A DNA stretch of 10,369 nucleotides from Caecitellus pseudoparvulus. Taxonomy: Eukaryota > Protista > Bigyra: Bicosoecida. Numbering within the stretch: position 1 is the first letter of the stretch; every line of letters starts with the position of its first letter. The stretch is from assembly GCA_965644315.1 (NCBI GenBank), contig CBFFRQ010000130.1, positions 1 through 10,369 of the forward strand, in the 5' to 3' direction. Positions 1-10,369 of the stretch are shown here, piece after piece. Under the pieces are notes generated by a model that was not told the origin of the DNA, did no database searches, and worked only from the letters and a program-made list of their open reading frames with translations. The position numbers and the translations under genes are program-made.

Positions 1-130
1 TGTGCGTGGCAATCGAAATGCATTGAACTGGGCCCGCCTCGAGGCCGTCCCCTCCCCCTCTATGCCAGCGGCCACCAGGGCTCGCTGCATCTCTTGGGGG
101 AGGGGACGCCTCCTTGCGGCACCCGCCAAT
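1..130 (-). repeat. Split direct repeat B2 (element 3' end, partial)
   Basis: Copy of 336-466 that runs off the window start. Confidence 0.92.
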
Positions 131-139
131 CGAGAAAAA

Positions 140-316
140 GAAAAAAAAGGAAAGAGAGTGACGAGGCCGGCTAATGACTGGTTTTGTCATGCCCGGTCCT
201 GCCGTCGTCTACTCTGCGTTGGGGCGGCGGGGGACAATTGTGCCACTAGCGTGGGACTGCCCGCCGCCCCTCCTGCCGGGAAACATGGTTGCCGGCTGGG
301 GTGCCGGCAACCTCGG
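140..316 (-). repeat. Split direct repeat A2
   Basis: Copy of 5628-5804. It abuts B1 at 316/317 and is followed by a short extra purine tract (131-139 on +) and then B2. Confidence 0.95.
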
Positions 317-466
317 TTCCCTCGTGTTGGTGCGTTGTGCGTGGCAATCGAAATGCATTGAACTGGGCCCGCCTCGAGGCCGTCCCCTCCCCCCTCTATG
401 CCAGCGGCCACCAGGGCTCGCTGCATCTCTTGGGGGAGGGGACGCCTCCTTGCGGCACCCGCCAAT
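317..466 (-). repeat. Split direct repeat B1
   Basis: 336-466 matches 1-130 except for one C in a homopolymer (C6 vs C5). 317-335 is assigned to B by inference. It begins 5 nt after the YR stop codon. Confidence 0.9.
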
Positions 467-471
467 ACTTT

Positions 472-1371
472 TCAATGCTTGCTTCCTCCCCTGGGTGTCA
501 TGGCCTCGTGCCACAGCCTCGCCCCCTCCCCCCCCCCCTGGGTGTAGTATCGTGCCCGGGTGGGGGAGCCAGCCGCCCAGCCCGCCGCGTGCTCCACCAA
601 GACGTCGGGGGCCCGGCCTGTCCAGAACATATTGCCCCCGGGTCTCAGGTGGGCCAAGGACACGCCCGCTACAGCCTTCAGGATGCCTTGCAGGCTGAGC
701 CACGCCCACCTTGGGAGCAGGCTTCCCCGCTTGTCCCGGGCCTGCTCCCGGAGGCGGTCGAAGGCCCCCGCCCACTCGGCCTGGCGCACCACCTGGATGT
801 GGCGGTTTGCACTCAGGTGCGTTTTATCCGTGACCCTGGCCTCCACCCACTGCAGGGGGCCCGCCCGCCCGAAGTGCAACTCCTCCCATCGCAGGCCCCG
901 GAGCTCTCCCGGCCTGCACATGCCGTGAAAGCCGATGTAGATAGCTGCGGCGGCAGTTGGGGCATGCCTCCCGAGGTGCGGCCCGTCCCATGCCCGCTTC
1001 ATGGCCTCCATGACTTGTTCTTTGCTGATAGGGCGGCGGTGTTGCTCCCCTCTCCCTCGGTGGAGCCGGCGGATTGCCCGGCAGATGCTGCCGACTGTGA
1101 GCCCCAGCGGGGCTAGCGACGGGATTGGCAGGCCCAGATACCTGAAACCACCGGCCCATTGCGCCAGGATCTGCTTCGCCCGATGGGGGGCCCATTTGCC
1201 TGCGGCCACGCCGCCCGTTAAGATGCCCACCATGGTCCGCGCCCTGTCCCGGGGTGCTGGAGCGGCCCTGATCAGGCCAGCAACCGCGCGAACGTACTTG
1301 ACCACCGTCCCCTTTGCCAGCCTATGTTGGTGAATCCTGCTGATCGGGGACGCGGGGATGGCCCTAATCAT
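472..1371 (-). CDS. Tyrosine recombinase (YR) of the retrotransposon (299 aa)
   Basis: Box I GFHGMCRPGEL (R), VTDKT (K), box II AHLRPGG (R), AAGW (W) and RARYY (nucleophile Y). The stop lies just before repeat B1. Confidence 0.9.
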   Translation of the reverse strand: MIRAIPASPISRIHQHRLAKGTVVKYVRAVAGLIRAAPAPRDRARTMVGILTGGVAAGKWAPHRAKQILAQWAGGFRYLGLPIPSLAPLGLTVGSICRAIRRLHRGRGEQHRRPISKEQVMEAMKRAWDGPHLGRHAPTAAAAIYIGFHGMCRPGELRGLRWEELHFGRAGPLQWVEARVTDKTHLSANRHIQVVRQAEWAGAFDRLREQARDKRGSLLPRWAWLSLQGILKAVAGVSLAHLRPGGNMFWTGRAPDVLVEHAAGWAAGSPTRARYYTQGGGEGARLWHEAMTPRGGSKH

Positions 1372-2143
1372 CTGCCAGAAGGTCTGCTTCCTTATCCAGA
1401 GTGTGTCTGTGCAGGGCGACGGAGAGTTGAGCTGAGTGAATCCACGCGGTGCCCGCCCCGGCCTCTCCCGACGGCCCTACGTCTAGGGACACATCATGCC
1501 ACCGCTCAGCGGCGCTGCTTCCCCCTGCTGATGCCTCCAGCTCGGCTGGTTGCCCTGGCGGGGGGCCGAGCGCTGCCGGTGTGCTGCTATCCACCCTTTC
1601 GGGGTGGCTGAGGGCGTCCGCCCGCCAATTCAGGCTCCTCGGGATCCACCGAGGCGCCAAGTGGACGTCCAAAACACGGGAAACCCGCTCGAGGACCCCG
1701 CAGACGCGCGTGAGTTCACGGCTGTGCTTGCTGTACCCTCGTCGCGCCAGCGCCACCGCTGCCTGGCTGTCCGCAGCTAGGCAAAGCAGCAGCGGCCCCG
1801 GCTCGGGAAAAACATGCCGCGCCATTGCCATAGCCAAGGCGATTGCGTACAGCTCCAGCATCGTGGAGGCTCCCACGAGCTCCTCGCCCGGGGCTGTGCC
1901 GGGGATGCGCATGGACGCGTACCAAGCGGAGTCTGTGCGCTCTCCTGGCCCTGCCCACCTCGACACTGTTGCCCCCAGCCCGCCTTCCCCCGACGCGTCG
2001 CACGAGCCAAAGAGGGCGGCGCGCCACCTGCTTGACAGTGGGGAGAGCGGGCGCATCGGGCCCGTCGATAACGGCCCACCGAGGGCCCCAAGGAGGGTCC
2101 GCAGGGCCCCGTGCGACGCCGGGAGGACAGGCACGAGAGCGCC
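1364..2143 (-). CDS. RNase H domain of pol (in the -1 frame relative to RT)
   Basis: Catalytic D-E-D-D motifs: SCDASGEGGLGA, STMLELYAI, AADSQAAV, WIPRSLNWRADALSH. Lies within ORF 1364..2284. Confidence 0.9.
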   Translation of the reverse strand, partial: GALVPVLPASHGALRTLLGALGGPLSTGPMRPLSPLSSRWRAALFGSCDASGEGGLGATVSRWAGPGERTDSAWYASMRIPGTAPGEELVGASTMLELYAIALAMAMARHVFPEPGPLLLCLAADSQAAVALARRGYSKHSRELTRVCGVLERVSRVLDVHLAPRWIPRSLNWRADALSHPERVDSSTPAALGPPPGQPAELEASAGGSSAAERWHDVSLDVGPSGEAGAGTAWIHSAQLSVALHRHTLDKEADLLADD

Positions 2144-3540
2144 GGGGGGCCGACGCGGTACTTGTGTGTGCGCATGGTATCGTACAAGAGCGACAGCGTT
2201 TGTTTTGCGTGGGGCACCACGGCCGACAGGCCGTGCAAGCGCCCTGTGACCGCGGCGAAAACGCGCTTGGGGATGGTGGAGCAAGCGCCGAGGCGATTAA
2301 GGACCGCGGCCAGCTGCCACCGCAGCTGAGTTCGTTTGGCTTGAGGACACTCAAGGTACACCCCACACGGGGCACACCTGACCACCATCCCCAAGTACTG
2401 AACGACGCGCTGTGGCCCTTGCGTCTTCTTGCGCGACACCCGGAAGCCCACGTCCTCGAACAGTTGAGTTATCTTGGGCACGATCGATGGCCGTGGCCCC
2501 AACGTAGCTCCCCCAAGCCCGACGTCGTCTACGTACACAACCACATGCCCTGCTGGGAACGCCGCTTCGATCTTGGCGCCCAGAAGTCCAGAAAAAAAGC
2601 AGAAAATGGCCCCGGCCGGGCTGTACCCGAAGGCCATCCGAAGCATGCGGAAGGCTGGCCTGCCCTGGGCGAGCATGGTGAACAGTCCGGCGCCCGACGG
2701 AGCGATGGGGATGGCCGTGTACCCTGCTTCCACGTCCAGGACAACACAGTCCGAGTTCGGCGGGAGGCGCAGCGCCCAGCTCTCCAGCGTGGGGTAGTGG
2801 AATGGGGGGCTCACTGTGGCCTGGTTGACGGCTGCCAGATCGTACACCACCCGCTGCTTGGCCCGGAACAGGCGGCTCGGGCGGGCGGGCGCGCGGGAAG
2901 AGCTGGCGGCCTGCACCGCCTCGCCTGGGTTCGCAGCAGCCCACTGTCGTAGAGCTTCGTCGCTGACGCCCGGCTGGGGGGCCCATGTCGTGACAACGAA
3001 GGCAGAAGCGGCTGGCCCTCCCATCTTTCGGTGCTGCTGCAGCTGCTGGGGGGTGACCGGCTGCAGCACGCGCGCAGCCGCGAAGGCGTCATAGGCCGCT
3101 GCCACCGCCCGCTCGTCGTGCGGCTGCAGCACGTATGCCGAGGACGGGGATGCCGCTGCCGGGGGGCGGCGAAACAGCAGCCAAGCGGGGTCCCACCCGC
3201 GCAGCGTGACCACGGTGAGCAGTCGCATGGCTGCGCACCGCTCAAGCTGCCGTAATCTGGAAGTGGTCTCGCCGCATGCGGGACACACGTCAGCGTGGGC
3301 CTCCTGGCAACCCCAGTATGAGACCACGGGGTGGGGGCCCCAGTCCAAGCCCCCACGCAAGATGTCCTCGAAGAGCCCCGGTGGAGTCCAACAACGGTCC
3401 CCATGCAGCTGCTGGACCATTGATTCGATGAGCACGGCCATGGCGCGGTGGTCTGTCGAGAGCGGGGCGGCAGCCCTCCACTCCACGGGCACGGCCCGGT
3501 ACCCCGTGGTCGCTCGCACCACCGCGCTCCGGCCCACCTC
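2144..3540 (-). CDS. Reverse transcriptase (pol, RT part); in frame with gag after one TAG
   Basis: Motifs KQRVVYDLAAVN, VVLDVEAGYTAIPI, RMAFGYSPAGAIF, VVYVDD (YVDD at 2535-2524), GFRVSRKKT...VQYLG and GRLHGLSAVVPHAKQTLSLLY are typical of DIRS/Ngaro RT. The frame stays open to 1777, but the pol-like sequence moves to another frame near 2145. Confidence 0.93.
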
Positions 3541-5559
3541 CTAGAGGCTGAGAGCTGCCTCCACCATGGCCGTGGTGACAGCGCGGGGCTGCATGCGCCG
3601 CTGGAAGTCACGTCCCTTGGATGCCACCTTCCGCTCCCACTGGCGCACCAGCATGGCCACCGCCTGCGCCTGGGTAAGTTCTGCGGGCTTACCTCCGACT
3701 GTGTGGGTCCGGCGCAGGTGGGCCACATGCTGGGCCAGGCGTGGGCATGATGCCAGCGACCGGCGCCGCCGGTCGGATCCGACGCACCCGGGGCACCACA
3801 CGAATGTGCTCGGGTCGTCCTGTCGGTACAGCCCCGCGGGAGGGCCACGAGCGGGGGTTTGCGCCGGGCCGCCCCCCGCACCTGGCATCGGTGTGGCGGC
3901 GGCCCCGGCCGCCCATGCCTCGCGCGCCAGCGAGCTGGCCACCAGTGCTTGCCCCGTCGCCGACGCCATCATGACAATGGTGGCGTTAGTGCGGAACGTG
4001 GCCACCCAGGAGGCCCACGTCAGCTGGGCCCATCGCCTGCGCTGGTCTTCGGGCAACGCAGCGGCGGTCTGCGCCACGGCCCGCACTGCGATTGTGATCA
4101 GGAGTGCGCACGCCATGGCTCGGCACAGGCCCCGCTGGTCTGCCAGGGCGGGCACCTCGGACGCCCACTTCCACCAGAACGCTCGGAGGGAGCGGTGGAG
4201 GTCGTCGGAAGGCGCCGTCAGCAAGTCCCTGGTCATCGCGGCAAGCCACCAAGCGCCCCCACGGTTGCCCAGCATGTGGCATGCCGACAGGGCACCCGCC
4301 CCAGTTACTGCCACTAGATGGGTTGGGTCAACTGTAACTTCCACCCTCCCTTGCACCAGGCGTACAGCAGTCACTACGTCCATAGCGTCGTCCATCATGA
4401 CCGACGCGGACGGCGGGGCTACCTCATCGCCGGGGGCTGTGAGCCAGGACGGGTCGCCGGGAGCGGGCACGCGGGGCGAGTGGGGGGGGAGCTGGCGGGA
4501 CAGGAACGTACCTGACGGCACTGGGCCCGTTGCTGCGGGCACCTCTCGTGCAGCAGCCTCAGCCATCTCGACAGCCACCGTGGTCAAGGCGTCTGTGGTC
4601 CCCGCAGCGAAAACTGCCCCCAAGGCTGACAGGCGGTCCCGGGCCACCGCCGACGAGGGGTGTGCGGTCGGCCCAATGACCCGCAGCGCGCCTACAGTGA
4701 CCAGTACCTCGTCGGCTGGCGACGACCGACCGCTGTTCTCCCCTATGTGACCGAAAACAGCCGACCCGCCTTCGGGGTGGACTGCCGGCGAGGCTCCGCC
4801 GCCCCACGGGGGAGGGGGGGGCTGCGGGCTATAGGCCGCCCTGTGCCTCTTGGAGGCCGGGGGTTGACCCGGGGCCGCCGCACGGGGCTGTAACCGGGCG
4901 GCATCCGGTGTGGTGCCCGGGAAAACGGGAAAGAACGGGGCGCCGGCATCGTCGTCGCCAAAGTCGTCGTCGCCCGCCAGCGCGGCCTCCAGGACCCGCT
5001 GCAAATGCATCACGATGTCGTCGGGGGTGAGGTTGGGGGGAATACCGTTGAGTCTGCACCATGCGGCGAAGCGCCGTGGAGGCCAAGCGGAGAGGGCGTA
5101 CGGCGATGTCTCCTCCGTTGCCAAGCCCACGTAGAACTGCAGCTGCACGACGACGTCCTCGCTCGGCACCGTCGCTCCCCTCTGCAGGAACCACGTAAGC
5201 ACTGTGGCGGGATCGTGCGGGAGGTCGCCTGCGACTGCGTCCGGCTGGGTCGGGCGCGGGGGTAGGTGCGGGCCGTAGGGCGTGCCACTGCTCGCACCGC
5301 GCGGACGGGTTCGCTTCGTGCCGTGCCCCCGTGGTGAGCCGCCTGCGCGATGAGGGGCACCGTCAGCGGGGAGGCGGAAAGCTCTGCCCGCAATGAGGGA
5401 TCGCATGCGATCTGCCCGGAATCCCTCGGGCACCTCCCGGAGGCGCCAAGCGGCCTCCATCTTACCAAAATCCTCAGAATCCGCCCACTTCAGCCAGTAC
5501 TCGAACTCCTGCTCCGTTATGAGCGCCTTGGCTTGCTTGGCGGAGTTGACAGACATCAT
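3541..5559 (-). CDS. Gag-like ORF1 of the YR retrotransposon (672 aa)
   Basis: First long ORF after A1 and directly upstream of RT. It has a Pro/Ala-rich middle and a C-terminal Cys/His cluster (WCPGC...SCPRLAQHVAHLRRTH). The call rests mainly on position. Confidence 0.75.
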   Translation of the reverse strand: MMSVNSAKQAKALITEQEFEYWLKWADSEDFGKMEAAWRLREVPEGFRADRMRSLIAGRAFRLPADGAPHRAGGSPRGHGTKRTRPRGASSGTPYGPHLPPRPTQPDAVAGDLPHDPATVLTWFLQRGATVPSEDVVVQLQFYVGLATEETSPYALSAWPPRRFAAWCRLNGIPPNLTPDDIVMHLQRVLEAALAGDDDFGDDDAGAPFFPVFPGTTPDAARLQPRAAAPGQPPASKRHRAAYSPQPPPPPWGGGASPAVHPEGGSAVFGHIGENSGRSSPADEVLVTVGALRVIGPTAHPSSAVARDRLSALGAVFAAGTTDALTTVAVEMAEAAAREVPAATGPVPSGTFLSRQLPPHSPRVPAPGDPSWLTAPGDEVAPPSASVMMDDAMDVVTAVRLVQGRVEVTVDPTHLVAVTGAGALSACHMLGNRGGAWWLAAMTRDLLTAPSDDLHRSLRAFWWKWASEVPALADQRGLCRAMACALLITIAVRAVAQTAAALPEDQRRRWAQLTWASWVATFRTNATIVMMASATGQALVASSLAREAWAAGAAATPMPGAGGGPAQTPARGPPAGLYRQDDPSTFVWCPGCVGSDRRRRSLASCPRLAQHVAHLRRTHTVGGKPAELTQAQAVAMLVRQWERKVASKGRDFQRRMQPRAVTTAMVEAALSL

Positions 5560-5624
5560 TTGTCGTGGATGTCCTCCCAGCTTCCGCCCTCCGTGTCGCT
5601 GGAAGCTGGATCATCCGATGCCAT
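5556..5624 (-). other. 22-aa upstream ORF (MASDDPASSDTEGGSWEDIHDK*) overlapping the gag start, or the frameshifted true N-terminus of gag
   Basis: ATG at 5624 in context GAGATGG, 3 nt after A1. Its TGA (5558-5556) overlaps the gag ATG (5559-5557). Confidence 0.5.
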
Positions 5625-5627
5625 CTC

Positions 5628-5804
5628 GAAAAAAAAGGAAAGAGAGTGACGAGGCCGGCTAATGACTGGTTTTGTCATGCCCGGTCCTGCCGTCGTCTAC
5701 TCTGCGTTGGGGCGGCGGGGGACAATTGTGCCACTAGCGTGGGACTGCCCGCCGCCCCTCCTGCCGGGAAACATGGTTGCCGGCTGGGGTGCCGGCAACC
5801 TCGG
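5628..5804 (-). repeat. Split direct repeat A1 (element 5' end)
   Basis: 177 nt with no mismatch found by eye against 140-316 (offset 5488). Confidence 0.95.
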
Positions 5805-6700
5805 GCCTTTCACACCCTCACGCCGCGCAGTGGCTGCCACTTTCCCAATGCCAGCCGATTCCGCACCCGCCCACCTGACTCGACACAACCCCGTACTGCT
5901 CTTCTTCTCCACACACCACACTCACTGCACACAGCCCGCCACGTGCGCAAAGTGCAGCGTAGCCAGGACCACTCGCATTCACGCCACGGTGGAACGGAGA
6001 CCTGCCCCCCATCCACCTGACGACCGCTGCCGCAGGGTGTGCTTCCCTTCATGCCGCAGCACAAGCCACGGATCCAGCTGTCCCAACCTGCTCACAGTGT
6101 GCGCTGAGCCCGCCTCTCCACCCCCTTCACACCCGAAAGCGGAACTGAACGCCAGACCTGTTCTCCCTGCAGCCCAATGCCCCCCTCGCAGCCGCCCCTC
6201 GCCCAACGCCACGCCCCGCTTCGCACCACACACAGCATGATCACCTCACACATATATGGCTCAGTCAAGGGCAGATACAGCGGGTGGTGGCTTCACTTCC
6301 AATGCCCCCCCAGCCTCATCAATGAGCTGAGGTGCCGGAGGCTTGGCATCACACCCAGGCATGGCTGGGGTGGGCTCGCTGGCGGCAATGTGGGCCTCTG
6401 GCTCGGCCAGTGGTCGCGAGGCTGTGGCGGTCATGAGCAGCTGGCCCACACCTGCGTCCATGCCGCAACCGTCCCACAGCCACAGCCCAGACCACACGCT
6501 GCACGCCACCATCACCGCCTTGTATCTGCCCGCAGAAGCACCATGTCACACCGACCACGTCGTGTGCTGGTGCCGGCCCACACAGCATCCTTGGCAGGCT
6601 GCACAGCCACTTCGCCAGCGGCAAGTCTGACCTGGAGGGGAATGGCTCGGTGTCCGGTGAGGCCCAGCAGCTCACGCAGCACCCGAACATGCTCATTGAC
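5805..6700. repeat. Segmental/tandem duplication copy 1 (3' end and 3' flank of gene A)
   Basis: Colinear with 9297-10034 (offset 3334 in the gene part), with a 157-nt extra segment at 5877-6033. Confidence 0.9.
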
Positions 6701-7318
6701 ACAGGCAAGCCGGAAGCCAAAGTCGGGCTTGCCTTCAGGCCCAGCGTGCACGTCCACTTCGCGATGCCCAGACAGGCCCAGCAGTGCACGAACCACGCCC
6801 ACATGCCCCTCGCGACAAGCGACACGAAATCCGACTTCAGGGCCGTTACTGAACCCTGCATGCACATCCACCTCCCGGTCACCGCTGAGAGCAAGCAACT
6901 CACGCACCACTCCCGCATGCCCGTTCGCACAGGCACGTCGAAAGCCAGCCTCAGGCATTCCGCCAGCCTCTGCATTTACATTCACCGCAGCTGCTCCGGT
7001 CACACCCAACAGCTCACGCACCATGCCCACATGCCCGCCCCCACATGCTGACCGGAACGCCTTGTCAAACATGCCCTGCTGAGCACACACTACCCCCTCT
7101 TCGACTGTGCCGACCACCTGCTTCAGCAACTCGACGGCATAAGCTTCGCAAGCCACTCTCGCAGCCTCCGCAACATCTCCCGGCGCGAGGGTCCCCATGT
7201 TCGCCTTTCCCGACTCAAGATCTTCCTCCAGCAGTGCCAACAGACACGCCACATCATTTAACCTGCACGCTGCCCGCCAACGATCCAGCCAGGTGCCGCC
7301 ACTGCCGCCATACGCCAT
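6512..7318 (-). CDS. Ankyrin-repeat protein A (4 clear 38-aa repeats, degenerate N-terminal repeats, conserved C-terminal cap)
   Basis: Repeats of GFRxACxxGHxxVVRELLxLxGxREVDVHA. ATG chosen at 7318 (context ACGCCATGG); the ORF track extends to 7357 using a non-ATG start. Confidence 0.85.
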   Translation of the reverse strand: MAYGGSGGTWLDRWRAACRLNDVACLLALLEEDLESGKANMGTLAPGDVAEAARVACEAYAVELLKQVVGTVEEGVVCAQQGMFDKAFRSACGGGHVGMVRELLGVTGAAAVNVNAEAGGMPEAGFRRACANGHAGVVRELLALSGDREVDVHAGFSNGPEVGFRVACREGHVGVVRALLGLSGHREVDVHAGPEGKPDFGFRLACVNEHVRVLRELLGLTGHRAIPLQVRLAAGEVAVQPAKDAVWAGTSTRRGRCDMVLLRADTRR

Positions 7319-7498
7319 GGCGTGGTGTATCCAGTTTCCGCACACACTCCCCAACACTCCTCACTCCATGCGGGATCCCGCACAAAGCTCGCATGCATCC
7401 CGTTGCCCCCCATGTCCCACATTGTGCTATGTTGCAGGCGTCCACAGTTTGACTCACCCTGCCCACTGTGCTGCATTTCCGTGAGTGTGGCATCACAC

Positions 7499-8773
7499 TC
7501 ACTCCCCCCTGCAACCAACCCACACTGCGATCACCACCACCACCACCAACACCACCACCACCGCTGCCGCTGCCACTGCCACTGCCACAGCCCAGGCCGC
7601 GCTGCATGCCCACGTTGCCGTCGTGTACCTCCCCGCAGCAGCAGCATGCCACCTCGCCCTCGCCGGGTGCTGGGGCCGGCGCACACAGAATCTCTTGGCC
7701 GGCTGCACAGACACTTGCCCCGCAGGCAGTCGAGCCTGGAGGGGGATGGTTCGGTGTCCAGAGTGGCCCAGCAGCTCACACAGAACATGAACGTGCCCAT
7801 TCTCGCAGGCAGCTCGGAAGCCAGCTTCCGGTTTGCCCTCAGGCCCGGCACGCACGTCCACCTCCCGATGTCCCGTCAGAGCCAGCAGCTCACGGACCAC
7901 AGCGAGGTGCCCATTCGCACAGGCACGTCGAAAGCCAGCCTCAGGCCCGCAACAATCTCCGGCGTGTACGTCCACTTCCCGCTCGCCACCCAGATCAAGC
8001 AGCGCGCGGACCACATCAATATGCCCATTCGCACAGGCAAGCCGAAAGCCAGCCTCAGGCCCGCAACAATCTCCGGCGTGTACGTCCACTTCCCACTCGC
8101 CACCCAGAGCAAGCAGCGCGCGGACCACATCAATGTGCCCATTCGCACAGGCAAGCCGAAAGCCATGCTCAGGCCTGCCCTCAGGCCCAGCATGCACGTC
8201 CACCTTGCGATGCCCCGTCAGTGCCAGCAGCTCTCGCACCACGCCCACGTGACCATTCTTGCAGGCCCATCTGAAGCCAACCTCAGGCCCGCCCTCAGGC
8301 CCCACATGCACGTCCACCTCCCGGTCGCCTGTCAGCGCCAGCAGCTCACGGACCACAGCCAGATGCCCATTCGCACAAGCAACCCAAAAGCAGGCCTCGG
8401 GAACGCCCCTGAAGTCAGCGTGCACATCCATTTCTCGATCACCGGTCAGCGCCAGCAGTTCGCGCAGAACATCAACATGACCGTATATACAAGCAAGTTG
8501 GAGGAGGACCTCAGATCCATCCTCGTCCCTGTAATGCACATTTACAGCAGCCCTCCCCTTCAGCGCCAGCAGTTCGCGCAAAAGTTCGATGTTCCCCTTT
8601 TCGCAGGCTAGAAGGCAGCCAGCAGTTGTGAAGATCCGGAGCATCCTTTCCATTGCCGCACCTACACCAGGCACACACGAGTCCAACATGCCCAGCAGCG
8701 TATCTGTCTGATCACATGCACTCATGATCCGAGTGCGCCCCACAACCAGCTCTGTACTGCTCGCAGCCCCCAT
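7499..8773 (-). CDS. Ankyrin-repeat protein B (8 repeats), C-terminus frameshifted relative to its paralogs
   Basis: Eight LAC/xAC..GH..V.RELL units with a 114-nt period. Likely ATG at 8773 (ACGCCATGG, MGAASS). There is one extra nt at about 7693 compared with genes A and C. Confidence 0.82.
   Translation of the reverse strand: MGAASSTELVVGRTRIMSACDQTDTLLGMLDSCVPGVGAAMERMLRIFTTAGCLLACEKGNIELLRELLALKGRAAVNVHYRDEDGSEVLLQLACIYGHVDVLRELLALTGDREMDVHADFRGVPEACFWVACANGHLAVVRELLALTGDREVDVHVGPEGGPEVGFRWACKNGHVGVVRELLALTGHRKVDVHAGPEGRPEHGFRLACANGHIDVVRALLALGGEWEVDVHAGDCCGPEAGFRLACANGHIDVVRALLDLGGEREVDVHAGDCCGPEAGFRRACANGHLAVVRELLALTGHREVDVRAGPEGKPEAGFRAACENGHVHVLCELLGHSGHRTIPLQARLPAGQVSVQPAKRFCVRRPQHPARARWHAAAAGRYTTATWACSAAWAVAVAVAAAAVVVVLVVVVVIAVWVGCRGE
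7532..7587. repeat. Compound microsatellite (CAC)n followed by (CTGCCR)n
   Basis: caccaccaccaccaccaacaccaccaccaccgctgccgctgccactgccactgcca. Confidence 0.9.
7929..8164. repeat. Near-perfect 114-nt tandem duplication of one ankyrin unit
   Basis: 7929-8042 vs 8043-8156 shows three substitutions by eye. Confidence 0.92.
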
Positions 8774-9296
8774 GGCGTTGCGAAGCCAGATTCCGCACCT
8801 CGCACCCTTGCAAACCAACGCTGCTGCTCAGGCACCCCAGGCACCACACCACCAAACAGTATGGGCGTGTATTTCCACATGCTCAATGGCAGTGCAAGAT
8901 GGGCATGCTGATTTTGAAACAGACAAGGCAGTGTCGTGCCTGGCGCTGCTGCGCTCCTGCGTTGCGGCGCAGCTGCGTTGCGGGACGATCGCGCTGGCGG
9001 CGCAGCTGGCTTCAAACTGACCGGCGCACCGCACTGCTCAGGCACGCTGCGCCGGCCATGCTCTGCCGCCGCACTCCTGCATCACTTCGACCAAGCACGC
9101 CCAAGCATCACAAGACATGATGGTTGCACTTGCCTGAAATGGAATCAAACACCAACATCCTGACCTGCCCGTCACACATCCCGCAGCCCTCCCCCCATTC
9201 GCGCAAGGTTCCAGCTCAAGCACAGGCTGCTCAACATCACTTGCCAGCACGCCTGAGCACCATATACCCGACACGTGCTCCCCACACCTTCAGGGG

Positions 9297-10034
9297 GCCT
9301 TTCACACCCTCACGCCGCGCAGTGGCCGCCTGTATCCCAATGCCAGCCGATCACGCACCCGCCCACCTAGGTGTGTGTCCTTCAATGTGGACCACAGTCC
9401 AAGGATCCAGCTGTCACGACCCGTTCACAGTGTGCGTTGAGCCCTCCTCCCCGTCCCCTTCACACCCGGAAACGGACCTGAACGCCAGACCTGCTCTCCT
9501 TCCCTCTGCTCAAAGCCCCGTTCCCGTCTGCCCCTCGCCCAACGCCACGCCCCGCTTCGCACCACCTGCAGCATGATCACCTCACACACATGGCTCAGTC
9601 AAGGGCAGATACAGCGGGTGATGGCTTCACTTCCAATGCCCCCCCAGCCTCGTCAATGAGCTGAGGTGCCGGAGGCTTGGCATCACACCCAGGCATGGCT
9701 GGGGTGGGCTCGCTGGTGGCGCTGTGGGCCTCCGACTCGGCCAGTGGTCGCGAGGCTGTGGCGGTCATGAGCAGCTGGCCCACACCTGCGTCCATGTCGC
9801 AACGATCCCACAGGCACACCCCAGACCACACGCTGCGCGCCACCATCACCGTCGTGCACCTGCCCGCAGCAGCACCATGTCACACCGCCCACGTCGTGTG
9901 CTGGTGCCGGCCCACACGGCATCCTTGGCCGGCTGCACCGCCTCTTCGCCAGCGGCAAGTCGAGTGTGGAGGGGAATGGCTCGGTGTCCGGTGAGGCCCA
10001 GCAGCTCACGCAGAATATGAACGTGCCAACAGGT
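9297..10034. repeat. Segmental/tandem duplication copy 2 (3' end and 3' flank of gene C)
   Basis: Starts gcctttcacaccctcacgccgcgcagtgg, the same as 5805, and is highly similar through the gene stop and last repeat. Confidence 0.9.
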
Positions 10035-10369
10035 ACAGGCCAGTCGGAAGCCAGCCTCAGGCTCGCCATCCCATGCTGCATGCACGTCAACCTCACGGTG
10101 CCCAGAAAGGCCCAGTAGCTCTCGAACCACGCGAACATGTCCGCTGGCACATGCACCTTGGAAGCCAGCCTCAGGCCCATCCTGGTCCCCAGCATGCACG
10201 TCTACCTCACGATGCCCACTCAATGTAAGTAGCTCCTGCACCACATGAATATGCCCAGACTCGCAGGCAAGGCGGAAGCCAGCCTCGGAACTGCCCCGGT
10301 ATGCCGCATGCACGTCCACCTCACGATCCCCCGTCAGCCTCAATAACTCTCGAGCCACCTCCACTTGAC
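9846..10369 (-). CDS. Ankyrin-repeat protein C, 3' part (5' end outside the window)
   Basis: Three full repeats plus a partial one. The C-terminus GHRAIPLHTRLAAGEEAVQPAKDAVWAGTSTRRGRCDMVLLRAGARR* is nearly the same as gene A. The frame is open at the window edge. Confidence 0.85.
   Translation of the reverse strand, partial: QVEVARELLRLTGDREVDVHAAYRGSSEAGFRLACESGHIHVVQELLTLSGHREVDVHAGDQDGPEAGFQGACASGHVRVVRELLGLSGHREVDVHAAWDGEPEAGFRLACTCWHVHILRELLGLTGHRAIPLHTRLAAGEEAVQPAKDAVWAGTSTRRGRCDMVLLRAGARR

Follow-up and report, generated by a model that had tools for sequence, protein, structure and literature searches.

A conserved in-frame stop between gag and pol as a candidate readthrough site in an Ngaro-like retrotransposon of Caecitellus pseudoparvulus

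The element and its gag and pol frames

We analyzed a 10,369-nucleotide (nt) stretch of DNA from the bicosoecid Caecitellus pseudoparvulus (assembly GCA_965644315.1, contig CBFFRQ010000130.1, positions 1 to 10,369; hereafter the window), whose minus strand carries a complete mobile element of ~5.8 kb with split direct repeats and a tyrosine recombinase (YR), which we describe as Ngaro-like. All features of the element given below lie on the minus strand. A gag-like open reading frame (ORF1, 3544..5624) and pol (1322..3540) are divided by an in-frame TAG (3541..3543, in the context ...CTC AGC CTC TAG GAG GTG GGC CGG). We consider this TAG to be probably a programmed leaky stop, where stem-loop-stimulated readthrough would make Gag-Pol, a reading that rests on comparison of sequences. 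A preliminary description, made from the letters of the window, had proposed that gag, ending in AGC CTC TAG, continues in frame into the reverse transcriptase (RT) ORF, that the first ATG lies more than 30 codons downstream, and that a purine-rich spacer follows the UAG. All three points were borne out: the TAG is at 3541-3543 on the minus strand, the first in-frame ATG of pol is codon 34 (3439..3441), and the 8-nt spacer GAGGUGGG (3533..3540) has purines at 7 of its 8 positions. In relatives the spacer holds 2-6 purines of 8, and the Met of codon 34 is nearly invariant, fused Gag-Pol ORFs included.

The gag-like ORF1 was named for its position and for a C-x2-C...C zinc-knuckle-like motif (3745..3795), whose three Cys are invariant in 12 aligned Gags and whose His, nearly invariant in relatives, is Arg in the window. 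ORF1 had no Pfam match and no sequence homologue in our homolog search, and a Foldseek comparison of a model of the C-terminal half of Gag (predicted local distance difference test, pLDDT, 69) with the PDB found no match. The open frame before the TAG is 689 codons long in the window (5610-3541), which is one T short at 5558 relative to runs X1, X2, X6, X10, X13 and X15; in copies with the extra T, the gag frame opens from an ATG at 5624 (~694 codons). Past the TAG the frame stays open for another 587 codons and contains an RVT_1 domain. Pol consists of a Cys/His-rich N-terminal part, RT and RNase H, and the latter two assignments are backed by atlas neighbours; the Pfam search of the element's proteins returned no gag, RNase H or YR match. 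The conserved Cys/His-rich stretch before the RT (W-x-G...H...C-x2-4-C...C, 3420-3100), likewise without a Pfam match, is possibly a zinc-binding domain.

In the window, pol is split at 2143, where its G run lacks one base present in runs X1 and X14, and is cut short by an A at 1366 that other runs read as G. We rejected a real frameshift between RT and RNase H because other copies are in frame, and the two domains share a single frame in database copies P0001 and P0003. Since the window has these errors or lesions (2143, 5558, 1366), and since continuous Gag-Pol ORFs exist in the family, the window might hold a defunct copy of an uninterrupted gag-pol ORF, with the TAG due to nonsense mutation or to a sequencing error. 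This explanation is largely refuted and we give it very little probability: the lesions do not include the TAG, the TAG is kept in copies with intact frames (the X1 contig covering 529-5636 and the X2 contig encoding P0003), and the corresponding column holds a stop in distant relatives as well. No alternative letter is listed at the TAG in the X1 contig 529-5636 and the X2 contig 140-4866 (both study P1), in the X13 contig 3341-3720 (study P6), or in X6, possibly the source sample. The contigs spanning the TAG are ~99% identical to the window; these copies therefore show the TAG to be real but do not show it to be old.

Conservation of the stop and predicted RNA structure downstream

Our protein search over 1.84 billion representatives revealed 23 pol relatives at E <= 1e-30, three of which are continuous Gag-Pol ORFs of 1567-1696 residues (P0005, P0011 and P0014). 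A metagenome scan found 32 loci, whose RT/RNase H matches are 25-33% identical, and 25 of these cover the junction (L016, L017, L020, L027, L030, L031 and L032 do not). No relatives were found in two scans of viral contigs. With near-copies collapsed (L005, L007, L015, L019, L022, L023 and L026) and L001 kept apart, there are 18 distinct junctions, namely 17 relatives and the window.

The preliminary description had suggested aligning related families to learn whether the TAG is fixed. A stop is kept in 24 of the 25 loci, where a single in-frame TAG or TGA stands directly before pol. The frame ahead of this stop is open for >600 codons or to the contig end, which comes after only 101 codons in L002, 78 in L026 and 32 in L028; L007 shares the junction of L008 and has a later frameshift. 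By comparison, the stop ahead of the YR ORF, taken as a control, closes no more than 70 open codons in any of 13 loci. The junction stop occupies one alignment column, after the knuckle-like motif and a KG helix, in the window and in 11 of the 12 distinct closer relatives, and is one column off in L021; in a deep clade (L018, L024, L025/L026, L028 and L029) homology of the stop position is not established by the alignment. The identity of the stop is evenly divided (TAG 9, TGA 9 among the distinct junctions), and the tree requires 2 changes for each stop label and 2 for the sense codon. The 25th locus, L001, is near-identical to P0005 and reads AAG in the stop column, so that a single frame of 1701 codons encodes Gag-Pol-YR; its alignment with the TGA-bearing sister L002 is free of gaps across the junction. 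L001:264-5369 is a complete element with split direct repeats, and its splice sites are still present.

The nucleotides that follow the stop also have precedents. UAG-G occurs in 5 of the 18 junctions and stop-C in 12, and L009 reads exactly UAG-CAA-UUA; the UAG-G, stop-C and UAG-CAA-UYA contexts belong to published readthrough types (PMC3159437). We dropped the observation that the junction stop is never TAA as an argument, since TAA is also found in 0 of 15 pol-ending stops and its absence is thus uninformative.

Could the stop instead be recoded, either by A-to-I editing that creates a Trp codon or by a host code that reads UAG as sense? When upstream sequence is included in the fold, the UAG indeed pairs within a long stem. 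A variant genetic code is excluded by the absence of TAG from 2365 codons (75 of them Gln) counted in six ORF stretches, taken from the element and from neighbouring ORFs. Relatives use either TAG or TGA at this position, and the conserved structure begins only after the stop, so we consider recoding in either form highly improbable.

Between the stop and the conserved Met, the linker is conserved as protein. A Pro lies 8 residues upstream of this Met in 12 of 13 junctions, a His written with varied codons adjoins the Met in 12 of 13, and W-R-x-A-A-P upstream of the first ATG is common to the window, P0002 and P0004.

Downstream of the TAG, we predict a bulged hairpin at 3493..3535 (+6..+48, ~14 bp, -25.9 kcal/mol for 50 nt). 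The preliminary description had named three competing stems here and all are present, two of them united in one hairpin with GGCCGG/CCGG-GCC as its base and GUGGU/ACCAC as its top; the third, CCACGGG/CCCGUGG, is an alternative stem that is preferred in longer folding windows. Taken by itself, the structure in the window exceeds chance only modestly. Against dinucleotide shuffles, this hairpin has a z score of -2.5 at 69 nt, -2.3 at 50 nt and -0.9 at 60 nt, and three longer windows give z of 0.0 to -0.6. Synonymous-codon shuffles give -2.1 at 48-51 nt and -1.3 at 60 nt; in both tests the lengths of about 50 nt were picked after looking. Run X6 mostly has T (plus strand) at window position 3516, a synonymous change in the predicted hairpin loop.

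The signal is clearer across the family. Over the first 60 nt after the stop, the mean z against dinucleotide shuffles is -2.65, with 13 of 18 junctions below -1.5, and 60-nt windows at the other 18 offsets have mean z of -0.71 to +0.23. With synonymous-codon shuffles, 11 of 18 junctions are structured in codons 1-20, as compared to 0, 2 and 3 of 18 in the next three blocks, and a strong hairpin follows ordinary pol stops in 0 of 12 cases. The first run of four pairs begins at +6 to +10 in 13 of 18 junctions. In the stopless L001 the hairpin is weak (-15.1 kcal/mol, z -1.3); all four sisters of this one locus have hairpins of -27 to -29 kcal/mol (z -3.4 to -5.0). The preliminary description had also suggested testing whether the downstream stems covary: in an alignment of nine relatives, two-sided changes occur at 7 of 10 consensus pairs, a number reached by 0 of 500 shuffles and approached by the best slid structure with 6, but two clades of four sequences show such changes in only 2 of 17 and 2 of 13 pairs, and the window is not in the alignment.

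We rejected a pseudoknot of the murine leukaemia virus (MuLV) type for the window. By simple enumeration, without a dedicated program, 24% of 97 other positions along the element yield a candidate at least as good as the best compact H-type one here, which is therefore not above background; the same approach applied to the 18 junctions found loop-to-downstream pairing of 2-6 bp with no common pattern. A word AATGCA, mostly in or near the hairpin loop, lies at ~+25 to +60 past the stop in L002-L004, L008, L009, L011-L014 and L021 and is not present in the window.

The apparently spliced recombinase and the proposed expression scheme

The third coding region of the element is a YR exon (472..1406) with RPGEL, HLRPGG and ARYY motifs. 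Of the catalytic motifs, RPGEL and ARYY are present and the middle one is AHLR rather than H-x-x-R; the exon has no Pfam match, and the recombinase ORF has homologous ORFs in relatives. One X10 contig (4650 nt, record 1) joins position 4512 to 1406 and omits the 3105 nt between them (1407-4511), whose ends on the element strand are GT...AG. The joint is in frame and fuses approximately the first 370 Gag codons to the recombinase. Its donor, CAG|GTACGT (4506..4514, intron from 4511), and its acceptor, with a pyrimidine tract and CAG| at the recombinase start (1407..1430), are both phase 1. Because the long contigs of X10 suggest DNA, this single contig is likely a retrotransposed spliced copy.

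Both splice sites recur in the relatives. A phase-1 donor lies at -926..-1157 from the stop in 15 of the 16 junctions whose upstream DNA is long enough; L025 is the exception, and the donor of L001 is a variant. A phase-1 CAG acceptor, picked by position, marks the start of the YR in all 13 split-YR loci examined, with leave-one-out scores of 8-19 in 12 of the 13, and likewise in all 6 loci examined that have YR joined to pol. L002, L003, L005, L006 and L009 encode pol and YR in one continuous ORF of 950-1066 codons and still retain the phase-1 acceptor.

Given that the element appears to be spliced here, splicing might also remove the stop, from the donor at 4511 or one at 3692 (GAG|GTAAGC) to an acceptor at 3453, or with the TAG itself as the 3' splice site. 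These donors and the AG at 3453 are all phase 1, and L018 and L028 have strong acceptor-like sites 40 nt past the stop. But the AG at 3453 scores only 0.2, compared to 17.5 for the YR acceptor of the window, on a matrix built from YR acceptors, and L004 has no CAG, TAG or AAG from the stop to the conserved Met. Strong phase-1 sites no more than 210 nt from the stop were found in only 2 of 18 junctions and are missing from L025 and L029, which belong to the same clade as L018 and L028; a conserved pol acceptor was rejected on this count. Further, half of the stops are TGA and are unable to act as an acceptor, and no TAG-skipping joint is listed among the contigs of 8 runs, in which the RNA contigs all lie outside the junction. 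We therefore consider removal of the stop by splicing unlikely.

In the scheme that we propose, most ribosomes on a full-length RNA would end at the TAG and make Gag, and a minority would insert an amino acid there and continue to Gag-Pol, with the leak presumably setting the ratio of the two proteins. The predicted hairpin, starting 6-9 nt downstream of the stop, would sit near the mRNA entrance of the ribosome, as proposed for MuLV and the alphaviruses in the available text of PMC3159437, and likely aids readthrough. A second RNA, from which the intron 4511-1407 would be spliced, likely joins about the first 370 gag codons to the YR exon and would yield GagN-YR. One element would thus produce three proteins: Gag, Gag-Pol and GagN-YR. 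The central proposal of the preliminary description, programmed UAG readthrough between gag and pol of a YR retrotransposon, is well supported by comparison because the stop is conserved, switches between TAG and TGA, has a sense-codon relative and is followed by a folding peak on its 3' side; readthrough itself is what we infer from these data.

Several observations weigh against programmed readthrough at the TAG. All relatives known as DNA are only 23-30% identical in pol, and the closest relatives, P0002 and P0004, are known as proteins. The sense-codon control is a single locus, L001. The hairpin of the window is weak at the fixed length of 60 nt (z -0.9), and five of the 18 junctions (window, L010, L014, L018 and L024) miss the -1.5 cut-off. 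The covariation test uses related sequences and a structure derived from them, which favours the structure, and the window lies outside its alignment. Five contigs from two presumed-RNA runs cover pol and YR and none covers the TAG, a count that is uninformative either way. Finally, an alignment of 15 pol proteins shows the codon-34 Met to be nearly invariant, its ATG has a good Kozak context in the window (CGCGCC-ATG-G), and the in-frame stop, spacer and predicted pseudoknot of the retrotransposon Tca2 gave no readthrough in a yeast reporter (available text of PMC2194720).

The last three points would fit an independent start of pol at the conserved Met, by an internal promoter, reinitiation or a non-canonical bypass like that of Tca2, with the hairpin serving in packaging or in holding ribosomes. 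According to the same text, Tca2 has a promoter at its junction and the flanking sequence is insufficient for readthrough (PMC2194720). P0001, a near-identical protein, has its start assigned to the position of codon 12, where the window has ACG (3505-3507) in the Kozak-like context GCGACC-ACG-G, and this suggests a variant copy with a start codon there. The contigs are unable to reveal RNA starts. Because the Met is nearly invariant and a look-alike junction such as that of Tca2 need not read through, independent initiation deserves weight, and we treat it as a possible but rather improbable explanation. It would not account for the precise match of frame between the end of gag and pol in 24 of 25 loci, nor for the conservation of the linker before the Met at the protein level. 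Moreover, the Met is also kept in the continuous Gag-Pol ORFs, the -3 base is C in 6 of the 14 junctions that retain this Met, and in L018, L025 and L028 no in-frame ATG occurs within 80 codons.

Extending the readthrough scheme beyond the window, we lean towards a broad marine Ngaro-like family that would make three proteins from one promoter through hairpin-stimulated readthrough and a conserved intron, with the stop swapped between UAG and UGA and lost to sense codons at least twice. A conserved leaky stop together with a conserved intron is a concrete and testable expression scheme. If it is true, this would be the first case of a DIRS-order element whose expression has been worked out, and gag-pol readthrough of the retroviral kind would have originated here independently, in a third class of retroelement. 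The junctions also offer a natural panel of candidate readthrough signals (UAG-G, UAG-C, UGA-C and one of the tobacco mosaic virus type) with a sense-codon control. For annotation they carry a warning, in that such 'broken' gag-pol frames would not be pseudogenes.

Element class, known readthrough systems and flanking sequence

A self-comparison of the window revealed the repeat layout A1-[ORFs]-B1A2B2. The 5' end of the element is formed by A1 (5628..5804), whose 177 nt are 100% identical to A2 (140..316), and B1 (336..466) matches B2 (1..130), which is probably truncated by the window edge. Between the repeats, the order is the gag-like ORF, pol with RVT_1 and RNase H, and the recombinase-like ORF (1476-472). 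The same split-direct-repeat layout was found in L001, L008 and L013 among 11 metagenome loci that were self-compared, and the element occurs in marine metagenomes. Both the type of element and the GT-AG splice signals suggest a eukaryotic host. A methyltransferase after RNase H is a trait of DIRS and PAT elements, unlike Ngaro. In pol, no Pfam match to a methyltransferase was found after RNase H, and the protein stops ~90 residues past that domain. In its repeats, its ORF order and the lack of a methyltransferase match, the element fits the Ngaro structure; its middle YR motif departs from H-x-x-R, and the tree holds only the relatives and no reference Ngaro RT.

The layout A1-[ORFs]-B1A2B2 is given as the defining trait of Ngaro elements in the available text of PMC8547959. 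As described there and in the available text of PMC9210276, the Ngaro elements of Cafeteria burkhardae share with the present element this layout, a length of ~6 kb, GC richness, the order gag-like, RT/RNase H and YR, and the lack of a detected methyltransferase. The ORFs of those elements are separate or overlapping, whereas gag and pol here occupy one frame with one stop between them, and the available portions of these two papers mention no splicing or readthrough, whereas the YR here lies on a conserved GT-AG intron. The statement in the preliminary description that DIRS-order elements are usually described with separate or overlapping frames agrees with the available text of PMC9210276 and PMC6681497. 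No paper found in the literature searched, outside of which most subscription papers lie, describes readthrough or gag-YR splicing for elements of the DIRS order, and a term search of the available text of PMC8547959, PMC7192593, PMC8226300 and PMC12477816 found no account of readthrough in these elements. Beyond separate or overlapping frames, expression of RT and recombinase in DIRS-order elements is not addressed in the literature searched.

The closest viral parallel is the Type III signal of MuLV, which, in the available text of PMC3159437 and PMC2194720, likewise has an in-frame gag-UAG-pol, UAG-G, an 8-nt purine-rich spacer and a structure ~8 nt downstream. MuLV is a retrovirus with a pseudoknot, whereas the window element is not a retrovirus and its compact pseudoknot candidate is not above background; the element's relatives differ further in having mostly stop-C contexts and simple hairpins. 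Of the MuLV-like context proposed in the preliminary description, the UAG-G and the 8-nt purine-rich spacer thus stand, but the structure is a simple hairpin, a compact pseudoknot was not found and most relatives are stop-C. Unlike in the gammaretroviral comparison, no protease domain was detected in the element after the stop. The proposed readthrough works like viral stem-stimulated readthrough outside the MuLV pseudoknot class.

Other parallels described in the available text of PMC3159437 are found among the RNA viruses. Alphavirus and tobravirus readthrough shares with these junctions a stem 7-12 nt past the stop and UGA-C contexts, and the tobamovirus UAG-CAA-UYA motif is matched by L009 with UAG-CAA-UUA; here the host of the signal is a retrotransposon and the stem is local, at ~45-50 nt. 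Among retrotransposons, Tca2 of Candida albicans likewise has gag and pol separated by an in-frame stop, together with a purine-rich spacer and a predicted structure, and its Pol is made from a gag-pol RNA (available text of PMC2194720). It differs in being an integrase-type long terminal repeat element, and the failure of its local context to direct readthrough in Saccharomyces cerevisiae serves as a warning here (PMC2194720).

At the repeats, one X2 contig (record 16) runs through YR, B, A and gag unbroken at window 140/5627. A circular A-ORFs-B form or a tandem copy would look like this, and the contig may equally reflect a collapsed repeat. The remainder of the window (5803-10369) holds tandem host genes with 114-nt ankyrin-type repeats that flank the element on the minus strand (6512-7360, 7499-8827 and 9846-10367) and sit in a duplicated unit of 3.3-3.5 kb. 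A sequence adjoining the element's 5' end (5803-5876) recurs at 9295-9368.

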